Virus record (IMG/VR): IMGVR_UViG_2675903468_000006
Strand: one strand, 5' to 3'
DNA: 45,417 bases
From: a virus
Taxonomy: Duplodnaviria; Heunggongvirae; Uroviricota; Caudoviricetes
Shown here: positions 34,637 to 39,536 of the stretch, in pieces
Layout: the number at the start of each line of letters is the position of its first letter
Position numbering within the stretch: the first letter of the stretch is position 1
The notes under the pieces: model-generated
Told to the model about the DNA's origin: nothing
Databases searched by the model: none
Seen by the model: only the letters and a program-made list of their open reading frames with translations
Position numbers and translations under genes: made by a program

Positions 34637-34865
34637 GGCCACTCTCCTTACGTTTCAATTCTTCCAGGATGGCGCGCATCTTCTCTGCCACAATCGGGTT
34701 AACCGAGCGGATGAAGCGGTCGCGGGCTATGTTTTTATGTACAGCGGTATGGTAATAGCGTGGATTTTTTGCCATTATTCCTCCTGCAATGAGTGCACAC
34801 GATTTGCATCTGAAGGCCAGTTCTGTTCGCGCAGACTGGCTTTCGCCATTTTTGATACTTCCCAT
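34629..34865 (-). CDS. Small coupled ORF between YdaT-like and O genes
   Basis: ATG overlaps upstream stop (TGATG); 78 aa. Confidence 0.3.
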   Translation of the reverse strand: MGSIKNGESQSARTELAFRCKSCALIAGGIMAKNPRYYHTAVHKNIARDRFIRSVNPIVAEKMRAILEELKRKESGRG

Positions 34866-35407
34866 CACATAACCCCCAGCATCGACGTGACCATCGTCAT
34901 CAGTGGGCCTACCTGCTCCGGCATGAGGCGGAACAGCGAAGCTATACCCTCGCTTACCTCTTTCAGCTTCTGATGCTCTGGGGCGTCCAAAAGCACGGCC
35001 TGTTTAGCTTCAGCACACTCTTTCATCGCAGAAGCGATCAGCGACATCGTGTCGTTCTGCGGCGCCAGGCGGTTGCGGTACTCCAGCGGCAATACGGACA
35101 TGATTGCGGGTGTCAGCTGGCGCACGTTCTCGCGGTACTGTTCGGAGTCGAAACGGTTATCCAGGAAGCGGAACAGCTTCTGGCGCGCACGGCTGATGTC
35201 GTCAGGAAAGCTGATGGCGGTCCCGCCCTGCTCCCGGTATTCGTTGATGATCAGTGCCGAAACGACGTCCTGATTGTCCAGCGCCGAAGACCATGCCCGG
35301 ACCGCATCGCGGATCTTTTCGTGGTCAGGCGCCGCCTTAGGTTGAGCGCGGTTTATCATCGCTCCCGGGTGTATTCCGGTATTGTGTTGATACGCAAGTG
35401 AATGCAT
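34865..35407 (-). CDS. YdaT-family regulatory protein (cII position)
   Basis: Segments NEYREQGG and LTPAIMSVLPLEYRNRL resemble Rac YdaT; sits directly after cro. Confidence 0.55.
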   Translation of the reverse strand: MHSLAYQHNTGIHPGAMINRAQPKAAPDHEKIRDAVRAWSSALDNQDVVSALIINEYREQGGTAISFPDDISRARQKLFRFLDNRFDSEQYRENVRQLTPAIMSVLPLEYRNRLAPQNDTMSLIASAMKECAEAKQAVLLDAPEHQKLKEVSEGIASLFRLMPEQVGPLMTMVTSMLGVM

Positions 35408-35424
35408 TGCTTTCCCTTTCGTGG

Positions 35425-35658
35425 TTAGGCCGCAGTATCACGCGGCGATGCGAATACCAGGCTTTCTTTTAGGACCGGAGCCTGGCGGTGAAAATTCTTC
35501 GTGCCTTTCTCGATAGCAGATGCCATTTCTGGAGATGCCCGGCGATTTCCGTAGGCGATCTGGTCCAGGTAACCTGGCGTCGTGTTAGCCAACTTTGCGA
35601 GCTGCGCCCATTCGTCGGTAGTGGCGGCCTTGCGCCAGCGGTGTAGTTCAGTGCTCAT
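35425..35658 (-). CDS. cro: Cro-like HTH regulator
   Basis: 77 aa, divergent from the repressor across the operator region; SD GGAG. Confidence 0.6.
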   Translation of the reverse strand: MSTELHRWRKAATTDEWAQLAKLANTTPGYLDQIAYGNRRASPEMASAIEKGTKNFHRQAPVLKESLVFASPRDTAA

Positions 35659-35690
35659 TGGTGTCTCCGGGTGAGTTGTTTGATTTGGAG

Positions 35691-35757
35691 TTTAGCGTTA
35701 TGCTAAATACTACGCAAGCATCATTTAGCAATTTGCACATTTATCATTTTGCTAAAA
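35691..35757. promoter_or_regulatory. Right operator region (OR), three sites of type TTTAGC-N5-GCTAAA
   Basis: Perfect site TTTAGCgttatGCTAAA plus two degenerate copies between cro and cI starts. Confidence 0.6.
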
Positions 35758-35774
35758 GCAGTAACAATGCAGGT

Positions 35775-36452
35775 ATGGAAAATAAAGAAATCAGAAAAGC
35801 CAACCTGGAAGCGCTGTACGAGAAGCGTCAGCACGAGTCTGGAATGACCAAAGCGCAGTTTGCCGAGCTCATCGAGACAAGTCCGGCTGCGCTTAGCCAG
35901 CTACTGGGACCAAACCCTCATCGCAATATCGGCGATAAGATGGCTCGCAAAATTGAAACTGCGCTTGATCTGCCTTTTGGCTGGATGGATGTTTTACACG
36001 CCAGTGAAGAACCTTCGAACGTTGCATTTCGAGGACTGAACGAGACAAAAGGAAGTTATCCTGTAATCAGCTGGGTAAGCGCGGGGCAATGGATGGAAGC
36101 TGTAGAACCTTATCACCGAAGAGCGATAGATCGCTGGTATGACACGACTGTTGACTGCTCAGAAGATTCATTCTGGCTGGACGTTAAAGGGGATTCTATG
36201 ACCTCCCCGGCTGGACTGAGCATACCCGAGGGAGCAGCGATACTTGTTGATCCTGAAGTCGAGCCGCGCAACGGAAAGCTGGTTGTCGCGAAGCTAGAAG
36301 GCGATAACGAAGCGACCTTTAAGAAGCTTGTAATCGATGCCGGCAGACGCTTCCTAAAGCCCCTTAACCCCGCATATCCAATGCTAGAAATTAATGGAAA
36401 CTGCAAAATCATCGGCGTTGTGGTTGATGCCAAAATACTAAACATCCCATAA
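35775..36452 (+). CDS. cI: CI-like repressor with C-terminal S24 (LexA-type) autopeptidase domain
   Basis: N-terminal HTH, C-terminal GDSM Ser and conserved Lys; start at MENKEIRK. Confidence 0.8.
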   Translation: MENKEIRKANLEALYEKRQHESGMTKAQFAELIETSPAALSQLLGPNPHRNIGDKMARKIETALDLPFGWMDVLHASEEPSNVAFRGLNETKGSYPVISWVSAGQWMEAVEPYHRRAIDRWYDTTVDCSEDSFWLDVKGDSMTSPAGLSIPEGAAILVDPEVEPRNGKLVVAKLEGDNEATFKKLVIDAGRRFLKPLNPAYPMLEINGNCKIIGVVVDAKILNIP

Positions 36453-36469
36453 CCTCACGCAAAACCCCT

Positions 36470-36497
36470 CAAGCCCGCCATCGCGCGGGCTTTTTTA
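36470..36497 (+). terminator. Intrinsic terminator after cI
   Basis: AGCCCGC-loop-GCGGGCT hairpin followed by T6. Confidence 0.6.
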
Positions 36498-36535
36498 CGT
36501 CCCGAATTCCTTCGCTGTAAATTTTTAATCGCTTA

Positions 36536-36610
36536 TTAATCAATACGCTAAATAAAACCATTCAACAATTTAGCATTTTGCTATTGCGCATAATTTAGCA
36601 TCACGCTAAA
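36536..36610. promoter_or_regulatory. Left operator region (OL), three sites of the same TTTAGC-N5-GCTAAA type
   Basis: Perfect site TTTAGCatcacGCTAAA plus two degenerate copies. Confidence 0.55.
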
Positions 36611-36807
36611 TTCACCCCATCGAAACGAAACATCGACAGCTGAGCGAAGTTAGCCAGCGGCGAAGTGGAGATTCGGTCAGTCGAACGGCGCGACAGTAAA
36701 CCATGCGTCGGACCATAGGCGGGCTCAGGAAGAGCGGCAATTATGGCTAAACGATTTACCAGCAGCTCTTTGCGAGGGGCTGACGGTAAACAATCAGAGG
36801 GGTGTAT

Positions 36808-37149
36808 ATGTCAGATAAAAAAATGGCGCCACTACTGCTCAATGTAGACGCCAGCGAAGTGCTTACCCAGACCGGGGAGCTTTTAAAGTTACTTGAACTT
36901 CCAGCCAGCTCCTTTCAGGGAATTCCTGAGCATGTCGTCGATCTGTTTTTTGACCGTGTCCGTGGCCTGATTGACAACATCGTCCTTAGTGATTTCGCGA
37001 CCACAGTCAGCACAACTGACGCCGGTGAAATTTGTCTCAAAGTCAAAATCATCGGGCTGGTTGAACATCTCACTTCCGCAGTCAGGGCACACGGTCCGCA
37101 TGGTTTGCATGAACATATCCTTTCTACTGTTGGGGAGCTTAAAGAGTAA
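36808..37149 (+). CDS. Hypothetical first early-left ORF (N position, no Arg-rich motif)
   Basis: ATG with SD AGAGGGG; overlapped by a zinc-ribbon ORF on the other strand, so coding strand is unresolved. Confidence 0.35.
   Translation: MSDKKMAPLLLNVDASEVLTQTGELLKLLELPASSFQGIPEHVVDLFFDRVRGLIDNIVLSDFATTVSTTDAGEICLKVKIIGLVEHLTSAVRAHGPHGLHEHILSTVGELKE
36889..37110 (-). CDS. Candidate zinc-ribbon protein antisense to the first early-left ORF
   Basis: Paired C-[PA]-D-C-G motifs (VCPDCG ... SCADCG) and Lys-rich tail. Confidence 0.35.
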   Translation of the reverse strand: MQTMRTVCPDCGSEMFNQPDDFDFETNFTGVSCADCGREITKDDVVNQATDTVKKQIDDMLRNSLKGAGWKFK

Positions 37150-37338
37150 GCGATTTCTTGCTGTTGGGGAATAGCGGGAAAGCGCGCGCCGGGCGCGGAT
37201 AAATACCCCGGCAATAACTGGAATGTTTTGTAGTGCAGTGAATTGCAGCTGCATCGACGGCAACCGGAAGATAAGCACCCGGCGCTGCACCACAAAGCAT
37301 TTCTCCCGCATCAGCGGGTAACGACAGAGGGTAAGTCA

Positions 37339-38007
37339 ATGATTCGTCTTAACAACGAAATTAAAAATCAGCTATGCCATAACCTGCTTCTCGCATCCCC
37401 ATTGTTTGAGAAAGCGAAAGCTGCGGTTAATGAGAGGGCGAAAATTGTTGAAGAAATTCGACAGGCATTGCTCAAGCAGGAAAACACTAGCGATGAGCAA
37501 ATAACTAAGGCTCGGGAAGATTTCAAAGATAACTCCTTCATCAAGATGAAGGTCGGCGCTAAAACTGCAATTTTAAAGGTCATTATTAATGGTGAGTATC
37601 ACGAATTAGCCAGGAACGGTTTGGATCATCGCTATCGCCACCGTGGAAAACATATTGGTAAGCACGATCTTGAAAGCGACCTGTTCTTCGGAGCTTCCTT
37701 CGCGCCTGTAATTGATTCGGGTTTCGTTCCTGAAAGTTACAGCACGCTGAAGAAAGTTGGAAAATTACACGACCGACTCACTGAATCGACGGTAACCATC
37801 AACGTTCTTTACGATGAAGTTGATGCCTTCCAATTGCAGGTTAAAGGTGCTCTAACCAAAGTCTCAACTGTTAAAAAACTGGCTGAGATGTGGCCTGAGG
37901 CAGTGCCATATTTGCCTGAGGTGGAACGCCGTGAAGCGACCAGCACCGCACTTGCCATTCCCGTTGAAACGCTAAACGCCCTTTGCGGCATACCAAAGAA
38001 TGAATGA
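37339..38007 (+). CDS. Hypothetical 222-aa protein, AT-rich moron immediately downstream of OL
   Basis: SD GAGGGTAAG; own terminator; no recognisable family. Confidence 0.55.
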   Translation: MIRLNNEIKNQLCHNLLLASPLFEKAKAAVNERAKIVEEIRQALLKQENTSDEQITKAREDFKDNSFIKMKVGAKTAILKVIINGEYHELARNGLDHRYRHRGKHIGKHDLESDLFFGASFAPVIDSGFVPESYSTLKKVGKLHDRLTESTVTINVLYDEVDAFQLQVKGALTKVSTVKKLAEMWPEAVPYLPEVERREATSTALAIPVETLNALCGIPKNE

Positions 38008-38028
38008 CCCGCTCCGGCGGGTTTTTTA
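38008..38028 (+). terminator. Intrinsic terminator after the 222-aa gene
   Basis: CCCGC-TCCG-GCGGG hairpin followed by T6. Confidence 0.6.
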
Positions 38029-38168
38029 TCGGCCATACATAGGCATATTTTCGAGTCTGCCCATTTATGACAACCGGCGGCCATCCACCGCCCATTGAAA
38101 CACTGAATAAATGCGTTGAAGTCTTGTATTAACCGTTCCGTTCGCCGCGATAAGGCCAAGAGGAAATC

Positions 38169-38297
38169 ATGGTAAACCAGCAGCAGATCAGAGAGGCCCA
38201 ACGGCTCGCGTCGTTCGCGGTGCTCCATCGCAATGCTCCGGCGTGGGAAGAAGCAAAACGCCTTTACGCCGTCGCCATCGGGAGGACTCTTCACTGA
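38169..38297 (+). CDS. Small coupled ORF (42 aa)
   Basis: SD AGAGGA; stop overlaps next ATG (TGATG). Confidence 0.3.
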   Translation: MVNQQQIREAQRLASFAVLHRNAPAWEEAKRLYAVAIGRTLH

Positions 38298-38494
38298 TGG
38301 AAACTTTATTCGCACTCGTCCTGACCGTGGCAATGACCAACGGTGATTATCAGGATGTCATTCTCGGCGTTTACGACAGCCAGCAGGAATGCAGCCTGGC
38401 AGCTACAGAGCAGAAAGTGTCAGCTGAGTGCTGGCCGGTAGAAAGCATCATCCGCAACGGCGAGTTCCCGGCGAAATCCATCGCGCAGCAGTAA
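38297..38494 (+). CDS. Small protein with signal-peptide-like N-terminus (65 aa)
   Basis: METLFALVLTVAMTNG hydrophobic N-terminus. Confidence 0.4.
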   Translation: METLFALVLTVAMTNGDYQDVILGVYDSQQECSLAATEQKVSAECWPVESIIRNGEFPAKSIAQQ

Positions 38495-38564
38495 CCACCC
38501 TATTCAACCGATCGGCCTGGCATTACGCGGGCGGGATCTGCACATCCAAATTTCAGGAGAAACC

Positions 38565-39536
38565 ATGAGCGAAGTAACGGACTTAACTGTCATCGAAATC
38601 AAGCCGGAACAGGCCCCAGTGCTTTACGTAGCGGGCGGCCTTGACGCGTACCTTGAGCAAATCCGCCAGGCTGTAAACGAAGTGCCGGACCTGTCCACGA
38701 AGAAAGGCCGTGACCGTGTTGCCTCTCTGGCAGCGCAGGTGTCCCGCAGCAAGACGGCAATCGAAAAGCCGGGCCGTGAGTACCTGAAGCGCCTGAAAGA
38801 GGCTGTGCGTCCGGCTGAGGCCGAAATTAAGCGATTCGTTGATGCCTGCGACGAGCTGCGCGATGCGACCCGCCGCCCACTCACCGAATGGGAAGCCGAG
38901 CAGGAACGCATTAAGGCTGAAGAAGCCATGAACGCGATGCACGCCGAAGCGCTGGAGATGAACATCAGGTTCGATCAGGAACTGGCTGCCAAGTTCGAAG
39001 CGGACCACGAAATGGCTCTACTGATGAACAAGGATTTTGACCGTGACCGCGAAGAGCAGCGCCGTCTGGCGGAACAGGCTCAGCGTGAACGTGATGAGCG
39101 GCTGAAACAGGAAGCGGCAGAACAAGCCCGCCGCGATGCCGAAGCGAAGCACAAAGCGGAGATTGAAGCCGCAGCGCGCCGTGAAGCCGAAGAGAAAGCC
39201 CGCGCTGAACTGGCGGAGCGCCAGTGCGTCGAAGCGGAACAGCGTGCAGCTCGCGAGAAGCAGGAAGCGGAAGCCCGGGCGGAACGCGAAAAAGCCGCGG
39301 CGGTTGAAGCCGAGCGCCTGAAGGCCAAACAGGCCGAAGATGCCCGCCTGGCCGAAGAGAAGCGCCTCGCCGATGAGCAGGCAAAGCGTGAAGCTGACGT
39401 TAAGCACCGCAAGACGGTCGGCACCAACATCGTTAACGCGCTCACCAGCCAAACCAGCTTAACCCGCGAGCAGGCTATCGAAGTGCTTACCGCTCTGAAA
39501 GATGACCTGATCCCCTGCGCGAAAATTCATTACTGA
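38565..39536 (+). CDS. Hypothetical protein with long Glu/Arg/Ala-rich coiled-coil region
   Basis: 323 aa upstream of RecT; overlapping antisense ORFs are low-complexity artefacts. Confidence 0.5.
   Translation: MSEVTDLTVIEIKPEQAPVLYVAGGLDAYLEQIRQAVNEVPDLSTKKGRDRVASLAAQVSRSKTAIEKPGREYLKRLKEAVRPAEAEIKRFVDACDELRDATRRPLTEWEAEQERIKAEEAMNAMHAEALEMNIRFDQELAAKFEADHEMALLMNKDFDRDREEQRRLAEQAQRERDERLKQEAAEQARRDAEAKHKAEIEAAARREAEEKARAELAERQCVEAEQRAAREKQEAEARAEREKAAAVEAERLKAKQAEDARLAEEKRLADEQAKREADVKHRKTVGTNIVNALTSQTSLTREQAIEVLTALKDDLIPCAKIHY

Follow-up and report, generated by a model that had tools for sequence, protein, structure and literature searches.

The window analysed here is a 45,417-nt stretch, read on one strand, of a tailed-phage genome (Caudoviricetes; IMG/VR record IMGVR_UViG_2675903468_000006). 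At the first position of its early left (pL) operon lie two open reading frames (ORFs) on opposite strands: a plus-strand homologue of phage HK639 gp45, hereafter the + ORF, and, nested antisense within it, a 73-aa ORF for a putative zinc-ribbon protein of the ECs_2282 family, hereafter the zinc ORF (Table 1). Comparison of this locus with its relatives suggests that both frames are probably genuine, selected coding sequences, and that they constitute a nested antisense pair which moves between the operons of temperate phages as a module of ~0.45 kb. If so, the pair is most likely an unusually deep new example of a kind of gene pair that is known but is rare and disputed.

The preliminary description of this region listed both ORFs, a Shine-Dalgarno (SD) sequence for each, zinc-ribbon motifs in the minus frame, and a plus frame without an N-like Arg-rich motif, all of which we found as described. 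It regarded the two ORFs as mutually exclusive, a view that our results do not support. Homologues or conservation confined to one frame were looked for, and both frames had both, i.e., a family of homologues (69 clusters for the zinc frame and 55 for the + frame) and signatures of selection. According to the same description, a real minus-strand gene would run against the pL transcript. This arrangement was confirmed, as in almost all of the 25 lineages compared the gene runs opposite to its host operon, and it lies behind a conserved promoter-like element of its own.

The + ORF is the first gene of the early left operon and ends with a stop codon at 37147-37149. Its SD (GAGG, 36797-36800) lies 7 nt 5' of the ATG, and initiation at an upstream in-frame GTG (36802) would lengthen the product to 115 aa (36802..37149). 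The first 27 codons (36808-36888) are outside the zinc ORF. On the minus strand, the zinc ORF runs from a conserved ATG at 37110 to a stop codon at 36891-36889 and is preceded, again by 7 nt, by an AAGGA SD (37122-37118); its stop-free frame reaches back to 37311. The zinc knuckles are CPDCG (37089-37075) and CADCG (37014-37000). Both ORFs use one common codon register, in which + position 1 is opposite minus position 3 and position 2 is opposite position 2. The overlap spans 36889-37110 when the conserved zinc ORF is considered and 36889-37149 (261 nt) when the whole stop-free minus frame is considered. Given the 2 Leu and 3 Ser codons of the window's copy, the antisense frame in this register would be open with a probability of ~0.37-0.47. 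The open frame is thus unremarkable in the window alone, and it is its persistence across 25 deep lineages that exceeds chance.

Families, annotation and occurrence

The zinc ORF matched the NCBIfam model NF047912 (ECs_2282 family putative zinc-binding protein) at 83.3 bits, against a cutoff of 37, over model positions 4-60 of 60. The two CxxC knuckles of a putative zinc ribbon are conserved across members of this family. The + ORF is 93.8% identical to HK639_45 (gp45). PHROGs holds one family for each frame, phrog_4852 and phrog_29546; the latter matched the + protein of the window with E = 6.7e-4 and 27 of 29 family members with a best E of 1.7e-61. Pfam holds no family for the + ORF and gave only sub-threshold, generic zinc ribbons for the zinc ORF. 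In a large protein collection, the 69 zinc clusters were mostly named by NCBI and the 55 + clusters were mostly unnamed calls from Logan and ENA. Identity to relatives was higher in the zinc frame than in the + frame throughout (98.6% vs 93.8%; 71% vs 61%).

Annotation of the locus is inconsistent, with RefSeq and the Prokaryotic Genome Annotation Pipeline (PGAP) naming the zinc gene and phage authors and Prodigal-type pipelines naming the opposite ORF; none of the records examined accounts for the pair. The HK639 record lists the + ORF as HK639_45, a hypothetical protein, and leaves the antisense zinc gene unannotated. PGAP calls the minus ORF only, as an "ECs_2282 family putative zinc-binding protein" (EB670_RS25630, NZ_CP033378.1), and begins it at the ATG at 37068. 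The resulting 59-aa model (36889-37068, minus strand) loses the first CPDCG knuckle, i.e., half of the zinc site, whereas the family hidden Markov model aligns from upstream of that knuckle. In four other annotated phages the called ORF is the antisense partner of the zinc ORF, and in NCBI records of Brenneria, Serratia, and Morganella both ORFs are called at one locus. A literature search returned nothing on ECs2282 or on the pair of genes. A separate annotation problem was seen in Klebsiella phage ST899-OXA48phi17.1 (L004, 1998-2414), where a hypothetical gene is annotated on the + strand and a 118-aa ORF (2052-2408) occupies the opposite one. The annotated strand is likely wrong there, since the 118-aa ORF sits where related loci encode a gp25-like sheath initiator.

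Structure prediction gave, for the zinc protein, a generic CPxCG zinc ribbon and, C-terminal to it, a long helix, with a predicted local distance difference test score (pLDDT) of 76-86 over the ribbon region of the AlphaFold2 model, which was built from 36892-37107 and so is without Met1. For the + protein, a mostly helical structure is predicted. Both proteins are acidic (median pI, or isoelectric point, ~4.9). Two functional candidates for the zinc protein were rejected: a Lar-like restriction alleviation protein (TIGR03655, 16.9 bits vs a cutoff of 39.6) and the MqsA/YgiT zinc ribbons (TIGR03830, 16.9 vs 61.8; TIGR03831, 16.8 vs 20.2). These matches reflect generic zinc-ribbon resemblance only.

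The module comes first or early in the pL operon in the window, HK639, the Sakai prophage Sp12, Edwardsiella phage Edno5, and Klebsiella phages. It also lies directly 3' of the tape-measure gene in one locus type, and immediately 5' of the gp25-like sheath initiator in baseplate operons of the myovirus type; in Brenneria it is found between the spike gene and the gp25-like sheath initiator gene. The pair has been kept down to ~30-45% protein identity in phages of Escherichia, Klebsiella, Enterobacter, Serratia, Yersinia, Edwardsiella, Brenneria, and Morganella. Since the + ORF runs along the host operon and the zinc gene runs against it in nearly all 25 lineages, the pair travels as one unit. 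Furthermore, since tail and baseplate operons carry the module as well, it is not a component of antitermination. In the loci following the tape-measure gene, a 155-aa version of the + ORF was observed (L005, 2486-2962, minus strand; L358, 97-606, plus strand), which looks like a fusion of the C-terminal part of an upstream gene (…GYLKDGTQQKIIAALE…) to a normal + ORF of ~95 aa.

Not every copy is intact. In 18 of 69 Sp12-type viral contigs (L277-L356; L276, 9954-10154), the zinc gene is interrupted by a nonsense codon after Gly13 (MNTIKFSCPECGG*), and the antisense ORF is still open.

Selection on the two frames

For counts of variation by codon position, 75 unique homologous DNAs were aligned; for tree-based counts, changes were assigned by parsimony, relative to mutational opportunity, on a neighbour-joining tree of 119 unique zinc-ORF DNAs. 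The 25 lineages are represented by copies whose zinc proteins share <80% identity. The scan of genome contigs gave just 4 loci, and the search seeded with ECs_2282 gave near-identical Sp12-type copies only, for which reason the Sp12-type clade was counted as one lineage.

The zinc frame is under clear purifying selection, i.e., it is coding. Over the overlap (36889-37095), variable sites at + codon positions 1, 2, and 3 numbered 24/2/5 among close relatives and 60/16/25 among all sequences. Variation therefore peaks at the third position of the zinc frame. On the tree, changes synonymous in both frames had the highest relative rate (3.38; 40 observed), followed by those synonymous in the zinc frame and nonsynonymous in the + frame (2.32; 460 observed), those nonsynonymous in the zinc frame and synonymous in the + frame (0.87; 194 observed), and those nonsynonymous in both (0.51; 230 observed). 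The ratio of nonsynonymous to synonymous change (omega) in the zinc frame was ~0.22-0.26 by these counts. The four zinc-ribbon Cys residues were invariant in alignments of 5 and of 26 members, and the ATG and AAGGA SD of the gene are conserved. An outgroup clade of 93-aa zinc-family proteins (CPTCG ... CASCGREITKD) is informative here. In two gene-listing records its gene is an ordinary, co-oriented member of its operon with no antisense gene called; stops are present on the antisense strand in this clade, where no such frame is consistently open. The zinc family, then, does not depend on the overlap for its existence. The embedded zinc gene is the better conserved of the pair and is probably also the older.

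Evidence for the + frame comes in part from what the zinc gene avoids. The + frame is open in all 25 lineages, with start codons present for both frames, most of them behind an SD. Within the zinc core of these lineages, the codons TTA, CTA, and TCA, which read as stops on the + strand, were used for 0 of 58 Leu and 0 of 117 Ser residues, where 12-20% would be expected (joint P of 1e-11 to 1e-15). A count on the tree, which avoids the assumption of independence behind that joint P, agreed: zinc-synonymous changes that create a + stop were observed once against ~15 expected, and zinc-nonsynonymous changes that do so were observed 0 times against ~4 expected.

The part of the + ORF that lies beyond the zinc gene behaves as coding sequence as well. 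In every lineage, the + start codon (GTG in one) is found 24-30 codons past the stop of the zinc gene, and in most lineages a GAGG-type SD precedes it by 6-9 nt. Changes in this non-overlapping N-terminus at codon positions 1, 2, and 3 numbered 191/137/307 (omega ~0.5), and variable sites in the clade of the window itself numbered 7/7/14. The region encodes a motif, hydrophobic-x-hydrophobic-x-[IV]-D-x-[ST]-E, centred on an invariant Asp (Asp14); further along, Arg93 is nearly invariant. The genes flanking the module point the same way as the + ORF in nearly all 25 lineages, and in seven lineages a gene 5' of the + ORF ends 1-18 nt short of its ATG.

Within the overlap, codon choice in the zinc frame is position-specific, often falls on rare codons, and conserves + residues. 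A conserved zinc-frame Arg is encoded by AGG (16 of 23), AGA (4), or CGG (3) and never by CGT or CGC, which gives Pro (AGG, CGG) or Ser (AGA) in the + frame. A conserved Pro is CCC in 16/16 and is read as + Gly; the Pro of CPDC is CCT in 17, CCG in 7, and CCC in 1, and is read as + Arg in 24/25. Likewise, Leu is CTC in 34/58, giving + Glu, and the two Cys positions of the first knuckle favour TGC by 21:4 and 24:1, giving + Ala. The second-knuckle Cys positions, opposite + Ala or Thr, served as a control; their codons are divided 14:11 and 13:12, and this near-even use indicates that synonymous sites are otherwise saturated. The + motif A-[IV]-R-A is built by the choices at the conserved Arg, the conserved Pro, and the Pro of CPDC. 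When synonymous codons were shuffled within genes, + identity at columns identical in the zinc frame fell from the observed 0.571 to a null value of 0.451, and the observed value was reached in 0 of 1000 shuffles. In addition, where zinc-synonymous changes had alternatives, the + replacements they caused were more conservative than expected (mean BLOSUM62 of -0.19 vs -0.49, P<0.0002). The ratio of changes nonsynonymous in both frames to those nonsynonymous in the zinc frame only was treated as a confounded measure of + selection, since zinc position-2 changes are the more radical.

Conservation extends upstream of the zinc gene. In 18 deep lineages, ~125 nt 5' of its start were aligned, and the conserved pattern appears to be the signature of a promoter (candidate sigma-70 element, Table 1). 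In the window, its -10 hexamer overlaps the stop codon of the + ORF. Across the 18 lineages, the -10 always has T1 and T6, and A2 in at least 85%, while its middle bases vary (e.g., TAGAAT, TAGACT, TAATTT, and TAAAAT in relatives). The -35-like hexamer is TTTCCA or TTCCCC, at a fixed spacing of 16-18 bp from the -10. A consensus promoter scan of 36400-37400 found nothing, and the candidate is visible solely through comparison of lineages. Two copies of a direct repeat are also present, copy 1 overlapping the -35 and copy 2 lying in the 5' untranslated region, where it runs into the zinc SD. Between lineages the copies co-vary, being either of the CCCCAACAG type or of the CCACAGTCAA type. Such joint change of the TCCCCAACAG copies is as expected of operator sites, yet the two proteins of the module are acidic (pI ~4.9), and the idea of a DNA-binding autoregulator at the repeats was accordingly dropped as weak. 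Further 5' is a hairpin whose stems covary (GCCGGG..CCCGGC vs GCCTG..CAGGC) and which Sakai Sp12 shares; read on either strand, it does not qualify as a canonical terminator.

Competing explanations and a tentative model

An explanation requiring one gene fewer is that the zinc gene alone is real and the + ORF is its shadow, a same-register antisense frame that is open by chance and is picked by gene finders for its greater length. The dominance of the zinc frame in overlap substitutions (24/2/5), its higher identity to relatives in every comparison, the annotation of the zinc gene alone by PGAP, and the probability of ~0.4 that the frame would be open in the window by itself are all in keeping with this. 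We consider it distinctly improbable, because it leaves unexplained the zero stop-making Leu and Ser codons in 25 lineages, the 1 stop-creating synonymous change where ~15 were expected, the conserved + SD and ATG, the coding periodicity over 24-30 codons outside the zinc gene, the rare-codon choices that conserve + residues, and the co-orientation and tight packing with neighbouring genes. Moreover, antisense stops do occur in the outgroup clade of the zinc family. The converse, that only the + ORF is real and the zinc-ribbon pattern is a by-product of conserved + residues, can hardly be correct. The + ORF alone is annotated by the HK639 authors and by most gene callers outside NCBI, and it does fit the direction of the operon, but the variable sites of the overlap are concentrated at + codon position 1 rather than 3, and the invariant Cys residues would need GCA or ACA for every opposing Ala or Thr codon in all lineages. 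It would also have to account for the 93-aa zinc clade, with its antisense stops and no called antisense gene, and for the zinc gene's own conserved SD, ATG, and promoter-like element.

It is also conceivable, if unlikely, that the + ORF is translated and its product is irrelevant, the frame being kept open so that ribosomes cross the module and avert Rho-dependent polarity or antisense-RNA silencing of downstream genes. Such a role would suit a frame with strong selection for openness and start signals and weak amino-acid constraint (omega ~0.5-0.7), a protein with no recognisable fold or family function, and a module found in operons of functions as different as pL early, post-tape-measure, and baseplate. 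It does not account for + residues conserved through forced rare zinc codons, for the invariant Asp14 and nearly invariant Arg93, or for the bias of zinc-synonymous changes towards conservative + replacements. Polymerase modified by the put RNA of phage HK022 resists Rho, and in the pL context a put-modified polymerase should therefore already do so.

Several observations weigh against the reading that we favour, in which both frames are selected coding sequences. The support for both ORFs is comparative. Selection on the + frame is weak (omega ~0.5-0.7), and this estimate is partly confounded by selection on the zinc frame; the lineages are partly dependent, so that the P values given above err on the optimistic side. 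The conserved + motif A-I-R-A has been replaced in the Sakai clade, and the commonness of the zinc nonsense allele in that clade means that the pair is not indispensable. The promoter match in the window is weak (6/12) and was missed by the consensus scan, and the Sakai Sp12 copy keeps the hairpin but is without the promoter segment 5' of ECs_2282. Considering this loss together with the nonsense allele, the module can evidently decay. Lastly, AlphaFold confidence was moderate (pLDDT of 65 for the + protein and 72 for the zinc protein), and Foldseek and PDB profile searches gave no significant structural match for either model.

If both frames are coding, their arrangement suggests how they might be expressed. 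The + ORF would be an ordinary co-oriented member of its host operon, here the first after pL and the putL RNA, and the zinc gene would be transcribed from its own promoter just past the + stop codon, convergent with pL. Since the operon promoter (pL, helped by putL) and the zinc promoter converge, their expression would be mutually antagonistic. In a lysogen, where pL is shut by cI, the zinc gene alone could be expressed. After induction, termination-resistant transcription from pL would cross the module and the + protein would be made; polymerase collision and RNA duplex formation would then silence the zinc gene, and production of the two acidic proteins would thus be tied to alternative states. 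We tentatively raise the possibility that the module is a strand switch of this kind, producing the zinc protein while pL or a late operon is silent and the + protein upon lytic read-through, with opposed or sequential roles such as a lysogen factor and its lytic counterpart. In this scenario the + ORF was overprinted on an older zinc gene and the pair has since been kept in enterobacterial phages. A gene placed head-on to pL could, in any event, affect expression of the early left operon.

Long antisense coding overlaps in bacteria and phages are rare and contested, and the usual support for them is expression data for young, lineage-restricted ORFs. The present pair, if our reading is true, has the opposite profile, in that both frames are deeply conserved. 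Antisense overlapping pairs have been described in Escherichia coli O157:H7, namely laoB, ano, pop/ompA, and nog1, and those cases are reported to rest on RNA sequencing, ribosome profiling, and phenotypes (PMC5810103, PMC5960689, PMC7103648, PMC9927249). Our pair resembles them in its full antisense embedding, in the promoter-like element and SD that belong to the embedded gene, and in the habit of annotation pipelines of keeping one partner. The embedded genes of the O157:H7 cases are mostly evolutionarily young and narrowly distributed. Unlike those pairs, the one described here is known from deep comparison, and its embedded gene is the better-conserved partner.

Comparison can also be made with phage morons, which are autonomous promoter-gene cassettes expressed from the prophage; lambda bor, for instance, is transcribed against the late operon. 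The zinc gene shares with morons its small size and accessory character, its own promoter-like element, its direction against the surrounding operon, and its varied positions among phages. A classical moron, however, lies between genes, whereas the zinc cassette lies opposite a conserved ORF that spans it and moves with it. The closest counterparts are ECs_2282 of Sakai prophage Sp12, which likewise has two CxxC knuckles and is antisense in an early left operon, and HK639 gp45, which, like the + ORF, directly follows a putL-like RNA. The pair occurs in tractable hosts (HK639 on E. coli K-12; Sp12 of O157 Sakai). A stop introduced into one frame can leave the other protein unchanged, which eases the design of separation-of-function mutations.

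Prophage setting

The window is an HK639-type lambdoid prophage, and in this region it is 100% identical to E. coli strain L73; near-identity to HK639 begins at ~36618. The operator pattern TTAGC-N5-GCTAA occurs 8 times where 1.2 matches were expected, and the matches include the oR and oL pairs (Table 1). The pL leader is ~99% identical to the annotated putL-like antiterminator RNA of HK639, the 3' end of which spans the SD and start codon of the + ORF.

Table 1. Coordinates of the nested pair and of associated features in the 45,417-nt window
Feature	Position	Strand	Details
+ ORF, HK639 gp45 homologue, 113 aa + stop	ATG 36808..37149	+	ORF list, family matches
Zinc-ribbon ORF, 73 aa (MQTMRTV...), ECs_2282 family	36889..37110	-	nested antisense in + ORF
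Candidate sigma-70 promoter of zinc gene	37143..37171	-	-35 TTCCCC 37171-37166, 17-bp spacer, -10 TACTCT 37148-37143
Direct repeat TCCCCAACAG(C/T)A..GAAA	37118..37171	-	copy 1 37171-37154, copy 2 37137-37118
Conserved hairpin	37188..37212	.	GCCGGG 37212-37207 / CCCGGC 37193-37188, 13-nt loop; stem covariation
LexA/S24-type cI repressor	35658-36452	+	intrinsic terminator at its end, 36471-36492
oR operators, TTAGC-N5-GCTAA	35692 and 35741		pattern scan
oL operators, two TTAGC-N5-GCTAA sites in pL region	36570..36609 (36570, 36595)	+	pattern scan
pL	~36578-36612	+	HK639 "putative pL" annotation mapped by alignment
putL-like antiterminator RNA in pL leader	36686..36811	+	HK639 record annotation mapped onto window

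Elsewhere, N or Nun is the usual first gene of pL, and antitermination by the put RNA is known from HK022 (PMC9378689). With a putL-like RNA nearly identical to that of HK639 in its leader, the present prophage appears to antiterminate via RNA, without an N gene. The absence of an Arg-rich motif from the + ORF is explained accordingly, since the putL-like RNA stands in for N. The preliminary description had placed the + ORF where N would be; its first position behind pL stands, while an N protein is not to be expected in a leader of the HK639 type. Pfam matched neither ORF to N or Nun, in an analysis that did not include a search for nut sites. The + ORF was also rejected as an N or Nun candidate for its lack of similarity, for the acidity of its protein, and for the occurrence of the module in tail and baseplate operons. 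A scan of 35000-39000 with Rfam 15 found no put family and nothing above threshold, and the Trp-leader and isrK matches in this interval are plain intrinsic terminators.

On the rightward side of the immunity region (34865-35658, minus strand), a YdaS-like helix-turn-helix "cro" (35425-35658) and a YdaT-domain protein (34865-35407) were observed, an arrangement that resembles Rac-type prophages and not the lambda-type cro and cII. A sub-threshold match to the fluoride riboswitch model at 38432-38494 on the minus strand (19.4 bits vs a gathering score of 34; E = 0.044), within or antisense to the region of a DUF1482-type small gene, is probably due to chance. The gene that follows the + ORF (37339-38007, plus strand) encodes an Nmad5-family "nucleotide modification associated" protein (Pfam PF18757, E = 1e-30), and an intrinsic terminator with a weak isrK-like Rfam match lies 3' of it at ~37971-38027.

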